From Escherichia coli (GTDB lineage: Bacteria > Pseudomonadota > Gammaproteobacteria > Enterobacterales > Enterobacteriaceae), in assembly GCF_044324875.1 (NCBI RefSeq), contig NZ_CP172185.1: 64,000 bases of DNA; one strand, given 5' to 3'. Made by a program: the position numbers and the translations under genes. Numbering within the stretch: the first letter of the stretch is position 1; each line of letters starts with the position of its first letter. The notes beneath the pieces were generated by a model. That model ran no database searches. It was given only the letters and a program-made list of their open reading frames with translations, and had not been told where the DNA came from. Positions 36,195-37,020 of this stretch are shown here, piece after piece.

Positions 36195-36941
36195 ATGGCA
36201 TTACTGGAAATTTGCTGTTACAGCATGGAATGCGCGCTAACGGCGCAGCAAAACGGCGCAGACAGAGTTGAATTATGCGCAGCCCCAAAAGAGGGGGGCT
36301 TAACGCCGTCGTTGGGGGTACTGAAATCCGTGCGCCAGCGGGTGACGATCCCTGTGCATCCGATTATCCGCCCACGCGGTGGTGATTTTTGCTACAGCGA
36401 CGGTGAATTTGCCGCCATTCTTGAGGATGTGCGCACAGTCCGCGAATTAGGTTTTCCTGGACTGGTGACGGGCGTTCTCGATGTTGACGGGAATGTCGAT
36501 ATGCCACGAATGGAAAAAATAATGGCTGCTGCCGGTCCGCTGGCAGTGACTTTTCATCGCGCCTTCGATATGTGCGCTAACCCTTTAAATACACTCAATA
36601 ATCTTGCGGAATTGGGCGTTGCTCGGGTACTGACATCAGGGCAAAAATCAGACGCACTGCAAGGTTTATCAAAAATTATGGAACTTATTGCCCATGGTGA
36701 TGCTCCAATCATTATGGCCGGAGCAGGAGTCCGTGCAGAAAACCTGCACCACTTCCTCGATGCCGGAGTGCTGGAAGTCCATAGCTCCGCGGGAGCGTGG
36801 CAAGCCTCACCAATGCGTTATCGTAATCAAGGATTGTCCATGTCATCAGATGCACACGCGGACGAGTATTCGCGTTATGTCGTCGACGGGGCGGCGGTTG
36901 CTGAAATGAAAGGAATCATTGAACGCCATCAGGCCAAATGA
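36195..36941 (+). CDS. cutC: CutC, copper homeostasis protein
   Basis: 248 aa [31 protein letters not shown]... Confidence 0.95.
36680..36708 (+). promoter_or_regulatory. Candidate sigmaE promoter inside cutC (MicL promoter)
   Basis: GGAACTT at 36680-36686, then 17 nt, then TCCAA; resembles the sigmaE consensus ggAACtt-N16-TCnaA. Confidence 0.5.
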
Positions 36942-37020
36942 TTTTTACCGTTGCATCATGTCGCCCAATATGATGCTTGCTCGTACCAGGCCCCTGCAAT
37001 TTCAACAGGGGCCTTTTTTT
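36715..37020 (+). ncRNA. micL: MicL (RyeF) sigmaE-dependent sRNA embedded in the cutC 3' region, ending at the cutC terminator
   Basis: Published location of MicL is within the cutC 3' end with a shared terminator; here a sigmaE-like promoter lies about 300 nt upstream of an intrinsic terminator (stem aggcccctg/caggggcct + T7 at 36988..37020), matching the reported transcript size of about 308 nt; 5' end approximate. Confidence 0.55.

Follow-up and report, generated by a model that had tools for sequence, protein, structure and literature searches.

The plus strand at positions 36713..37020 of the window, the whole 64,000-nucleotide stretch of Escherichia coli DNA analysed here, almost certainly carries the micL gene of E. 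coli, which is already well characterised and which, judged from its sequence, appears intact in its canonical context. This confidence applies to the whole explanation, namely the identity of the gene as micL, the mechanism involving sigmaE, RNase E, Hfq and lpp, and a MicL that is left unchanged by an IS1 element inserted nearby. The sequence identity, the position, the structure and the anatomy of the insertion were directly observed in the window.

Identity and position of micL

MicL shares the sense strand of cutC, lies in the 3' end of that gene and stops at its intrinsic terminator. The gene order around it, as seen in homologous E. coli loci, is yecM-cutC-torY, and the cutC stop codon occupies 36939-36941. 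The sRNA and its host gene comprise the following features.

36195..36941 (+): cutC coding sequence, 248 aa, the host gene of MicL (ORF list; cutC annotation in homologous E. coli loci)
36713..37020 (+): MicL primary transcript, 308 nt (Rfam RF02654 and the position rule of PMC4102768)
36941..37020 (+): predicted MicL-S, 80 nt (position rule from PMC4102768; 100% identical to K-12)
36988..37020 (+): intrinsic terminator of cutC and MicL (sequence, fold energy and the terminal hairpin of the Rfam structure)

When the whole window was scanned with Rfam, the MicL model RF02654 matched 36713..37020 (+) over model positions 1-308 of 308, with no truncation, at 362.4 bits (E = 2.7e-109), the gathering score of this family being 56 bits. 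A permissive scan of 36000..38300 gave no family besides MicL above threshold. One candidate from that scan, RF02278, was rejected as a sub-threshold chance match to the MicL terminator (20 bits, with 50 needed).

The published position rules lead to the same place. The 36713 start is the position of the cutC stop codon minus 226 nt, in agreement with Guo et al. (2014; PMC4102768), who also reported that the 80-nt MicL-S starts at the final nucleotide of the stop codon of cutC. Applied to the stop codon at 36939-36941, these rules place the start of the primary transcript at 36713 and that of MicL-S at 36941, which makes them exactly 308 and 80 nt long. The ncRNA micL annotated in RefSeq K-12 MG1655 (b4717) is at the homologous position, equivalent to 36714..37020 of the window, and the 5' end thus carries a 1-nt ambiguity between 36713 (Rfam and Guo et al.) and 36714 (K-12 annotation). 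The original prediction had recognised the architecture of MicL here, and the Rfam score, the positions of Guo et al. and the K-12 gene all agree with it; the published coordinates, by these rules and by the K-12 annotation, map to this part of cutC and not elsewhere in the gene.

A strong cutC terminator about 300 nt past the promoter had also been proposed. The distance from promoter to terminator was indeed about 300 nt, corresponding to the RNA of 308 nt, and folding revealed a hairpin at 36988-37014 with a 9-bp G+C-rich stem and a 9-nt loop (-17.7 kcal/mol), together with seven T residues at 37014-37020. By appearance this is a strong terminator, and it is where the published transcript stops (PMC4102768). 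It was not listed by a simple terminator scan because its 9-nt loop exceeds the limit of 8 in that scan.

We compared the locus with MicL of K-12 (RyeF / SlrA, RF02654, b4717; Guo et al. 2014, Genes Dev 28:1620), which is found at the 3' end of the same host gene on the same strand. No base differs between the two in the -35 and -10 hexamers, the 80-nt MicL-S, the lpp-pairing region, the tandem stem-loops or the terminator. Five single bases do differ: 36696, within the promoter spacer, and 36812, 36853, 36879 and 36884, within the 5' body of the transcript, the latter four all being upstream of MicL-S. All five of these non-K-12 bases are common to other natural E. coli, such as M7424. Base for base, the window allele is present in other natural isolates including M7424, all 15 of the 15 matches listed being at 100%, and the segment 36600-37220 was found in 5,422 of 5,426 complete E. 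coli genomes. Over its full length, cutC of the window differs from that of K-12 by 15 nt and 5 aa. Position 36696 is common to the promoter and the protein: it falls in cutC codon 168, where the window has G and K-12 has C, a non-synonymous difference (Gly in the window, Arg in K-12).

Other RNA matches were seen far from this locus. A full-length Rfam match to C0465 RNA (RF00116, 100 bits) at 23377-23454 (-) is flanked by ORFs of 167 and 560 aa in an apparent che/tar region. Three tRNA genes are clustered at 4849-5148 (+), with Rfam tRNA matches at 4849-4921, 4979-5049 and 5065-5148.

Anatomy of the IS1 insertion

The window carries an IS1 downstream of MicL, whereas K-12 has none there. The original prediction had put this element about 200 bp past the terminator; it starts exactly 200 bp past the last U of MicL (37020), leaves 115 bp to the torY ATG at 38104, and reads in the direction shared by cutC and torY. 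The features between the terminator and torY, and torY itself, are listed below.

37021..37220 (+): native cutC-torY spacer upstream of IS1 (100% identical to the uninterrupted spacer of M7424)
37212..37220 (no strand): left copy of the IS1 target-site duplication, CATATTCTT, 9 bp (sequence)
37221..37988 (+): IS1, 768 bp, with insA at 37276-37551, the A6C frameshift motif at 37527 and the insB' frame at 37470-37973 (sequence, ORF list and comparison with IS1A)
37989..37997 (no strand): right copy of the target-site duplication, CATATTCTT, 9 bp (sequence)
38104..39204 (+): torY, a NapC/NirT cytochrome c (ORF list and annotation of homologous loci)

The ends of the element, GGTGATGCTGCCAACTTA... 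and ...TAAGTTGGAGTCATTACC, form imperfect terminal inverted repeats, and the arrangement of insA (91 aa) and the insB' ORF (167 aa) is intact. Like IS1A of K-12, the element is 768 bp long and has imperfect inverted repeats, insA, the A6C frameshift site and the insB' frame. The two match at 765 of 768 bases (99.6%), leaving three substitutions, and homologous copies are annotated as IS1A-family transposase. The 9-bp sequence CATATTCTT is present on both sides, and the empty site is found in M7424. With the IS1 and one copy of the duplication removed, 694 of 694 positions agreed with E. coli M7424, in which the cutC-torY region is uninterrupted, and therefore the insertion was a simple transposition without associated rearrangement. 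The exact junction was found in none of the 5,426 complete RefSeq E. coli genomes, which means that the strain of the window is not among them.

This is the only IS1 copy in the 64 kb. The window also contains two direct repeats, 24333-24842 and 26034-26543, which are 74-76% identical with a spacing of 1,701 bp and lie within adjacent ORFs of about 550 aa. They are consistent with paralogous chemoreceptor genes (tar/tap-like) and not with mobile DNA.

Possible consequences of the insertion for torYZ and MicL

If the IS1 has any consequence, torYZ or the IS1 itself would be affected, and an effect on torYZ is more plausible than one on MicL. Native DNA between the element and the start codon of torY amounts to just 115 bp (37989-38103), and the IS1 may split the torY promoter region. 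For K-12, genomic SELEX has placed a peak of sigmaS-holoenzyme binding in the spacer that separates torY from cutC (PMC5493296). The 306-bp spacer has a G+C content of 30%, which falls to 18% at 37090-37220, around the insertion. AT-rich DNA is a preferred target of IS1.

Among 5,424 complete E. coli genomes, about 58 (~1%) either have no spacer or have an interrupted one, and 49 of those carry it split into two places. We inspected four example strains (loci L001, L002, L005 and L006). In PEB20-37-A, an IS1 is located ~11 bp downstream of the site in the window, with an 8-bp duplication; in EM20-18-50, 1 bp upstream, accompanied by a deletion that extends into torY; in FDAARGOS_1295, ~40 bp upstream, with an 8-bp duplication; and in YZMc10-2, inside torY, with a 9-bp duplication. 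These four insertions are independent events, and two of the four inactivate torY. All four have the same orientation, which is uninformative since the query was able to detect that orientation alone. As a separate observation, the spacer allele of the window is a minority one, being at least 99% identical in 270 genomes and 90-95% identical in 4,847 of 5,424, and cutC/MicL is far more conserved than the spacer.

One interpretation of this region is that the relevant effect of the IS1 is on torYZ and not on MicL, with altered expression of this normally poorly expressed third TMAO/S-oxide reductase. The change could come about through loss of upstream promoter or silencing sequences, through a polarity block on read-through from cutC, or through a new promoter. 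The low G+C content around the site, the sigmaS-holoenzyme peak, the ~1% of complete genomes with an interrupted spacer, and the independent insertions, which are within ~50 bp of the site in some strains and disrupt torY itself in others, all speak for such an effect. However, AT-rich DNA is simply preferred by IS1, so the recurrence needs no selection, and the insertions that destroy torY (L002 and L006) suggest a dispensable locus and not selection for activation. A literature search for IS1 together with torYZ found no paper linking the two. We consider this interpretation unlikely, and we give still less credence, at roughly the level of a long shot, to the fuller proposal that the IS1 changes expression of cryptic torYZ from an AT-rich, possibly silenced region, that the cluster of independent IS1 insertions within ~50 bp in unrelated strains reflects recurrent selection and not just target preference, and that MicL is unaffected. 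The simplest explanation of the recurrent insertions in the spacer is that IS1 prefers AT-rich targets and that the region is dispensable.

As for MicL, the IS1 leaves the promoter, the RNA body, the seed, the terminator and the 200 bp downstream of it intact, and the function of MicL is expected to be unchanged because none of this DNA has been touched. It is very improbable that the element instead alters MicL output, whether via termination efficiency and 3'-end formation or by antisense transcription from its left end. The IS1 is just 200 bp downstream, and IS elements can carry or create outward promoters. However, intrinsic termination is set locally, and the terminator hairpin, the U-tract and the 200 bp that follow are the same as in the uninterrupted strain. 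In a sigma70-type scan of both IS1 ends we detected no convincing outward promoter toward MicL or torY; no leftward promoter was seen at the left end, where the sole hit, 37228-37255, reads rightward into insA. The original prediction had further held that read-through of the terminator would now enter the IS1. The geometry bears this out, and transcription would enter in the sense direction of insA, but 200 bp of native spacer would be crossed first and the relevance of this is speculative.

Predicted sigmaE promoter, processing and lpp pairing

The promoter and the pairing region, which belong to the micL gene as identified above, are at the following positions.

36680..36686 (+): PmicL -35 element GGAACTT, sigmaE consensus (identical to K-12)
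36704..36708 (+): PmicL -10 element TCCAA, 17 nt past the -35 element (identical to K-12)
36959..36989 (+): lpp-pairing region, MicL-S +19 to +49 (published pairing region and RNAduplex)

The sigmaE-like sequence originally noticed inside cutC, GGAACTT and TCCAA separated by 17 nt, is present at 36680..36708, with the spacer ATTGCCCATGGTGATGC. A comparison with the published MicL promoter, suggested at the time as a check, showed that the hexamers are identical to those of K-12 PmicL and that a single spacer base differs (36696, G in place of C). The motif GGAACTT-N15-17-TCNAA gave a single match in the 64 kb when both strands were scanned. In dinucleotide-preserving shuffles, the mean was 0.13 matches. 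By itself the motif is only mildly beyond chance because at least one match was found in 13 of 100 shuffles, and the real support for PmicL is homology and not motif statistics. A GFP fusion and point mutations in the promoter demonstrated that PmicL of K-12 depends on sigmaE (PMC4102768). That the motif arose by chance in a region that is only the 3' end or 3' UTR of the cutC mRNA, without an independently transcribed sRNA, is hardly credible: the shuffles do produce the motif alone, but the hexamers are those of the K-12 promoter with demonstrated sigmaE dependence, the Rfam MicL match is full-length, and conservation of the sequence extends to essentially every E. coli genome.

In its minimum-energy fold, 36941..37020 forms two tandem stem-loops followed by the U-tract. 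The position of RNase E cleavage has been reported to be set by two stem-loops 3' of the cut (bioRxiv 10.1101/341578). The usual sequence correlate of Hfq binding is also visible, that is, a Rho-independent terminator with a U-tail. MicL resembles CpxQ, ArcZ and SroC, which are 3'-UTR-derived and Hfq-dependent, in that the sRNA is contained in the 3' end of an mRNA, shares its terminator and, as in K-12, would be released by RNase E. Unlike these sRNAs, MicL is also served by an internal sigmaE promoter of its own, and lpp is its one dedicated target.

In K-12, MicL-S acts together with Hfq: it base-pairs at the beginning of the lpp coding sequence, MicL-S +19..+49 with lpp +16..+46, and represses Lpp synthesis (PMC4102768). 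We calculated the duplex between MicL-S +13..+50 and K-12 lpp +1..+60 with RNAduplex. It covered lpp +15..+53 at -28.9 kcal/mol, a value reached by 60 of 1000 shuffled sRNAs, and it recovered the published core, in which MicL-S ~+39..+49 is paired with lpp +16..+26. In this calculation pairing was found with K-12 lpp at modest statistics, the strain's own lpp being outside the window. A calculation with full MicL-S and a 139-nt lpp segment was set aside; it gave an uninformative long duplex that 28 of 500 shuffles matched. The computation agrees with lpp pairing but does not independently prove it. Because the duplex energy is not strongly better than that of the shuffled controls, lpp pairing rests on the published compensatory-mutation experiment, which is the real evidence.

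Taken together with the experiments in K-12, from which we infer sigmaE dependence, processing, Hfq binding and lpp repression in the strain of the window, micL would operate as follows. Upon envelope stress, RNA polymerase with sigmaE would initiate at the promoter inside cutC (GGAACTT at 36680, TCCAA at 36704), and the transcript would end at the terminator of cutC. Directed by the two 3' stem-loops, RNase E would then cut at the cutC stop codon and produce the 80-nt MicL-S (36941..37020). Together with Hfq, MicL-S would pair with codons ~6-16 of the lpp mRNA, and the synthesis of Lpp would be repressed. This repression would lessen the load on lipoprotein and outer-membrane-protein biogenesis and feed back on sigmaE.

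No outer-membrane lipoprotein is more abundant than Lpp. Its dedicated repressor, MicL, is the third sRNA in enteric bacteria to depend on sigmaE, and it explains a copper-sensitivity phenotype that was once assigned to CutC. The IS1 next to it appears to be a routine, strain-specific transposition into AT-rich intergenic DNA, which would matter only if the expression of torYZ were altered.
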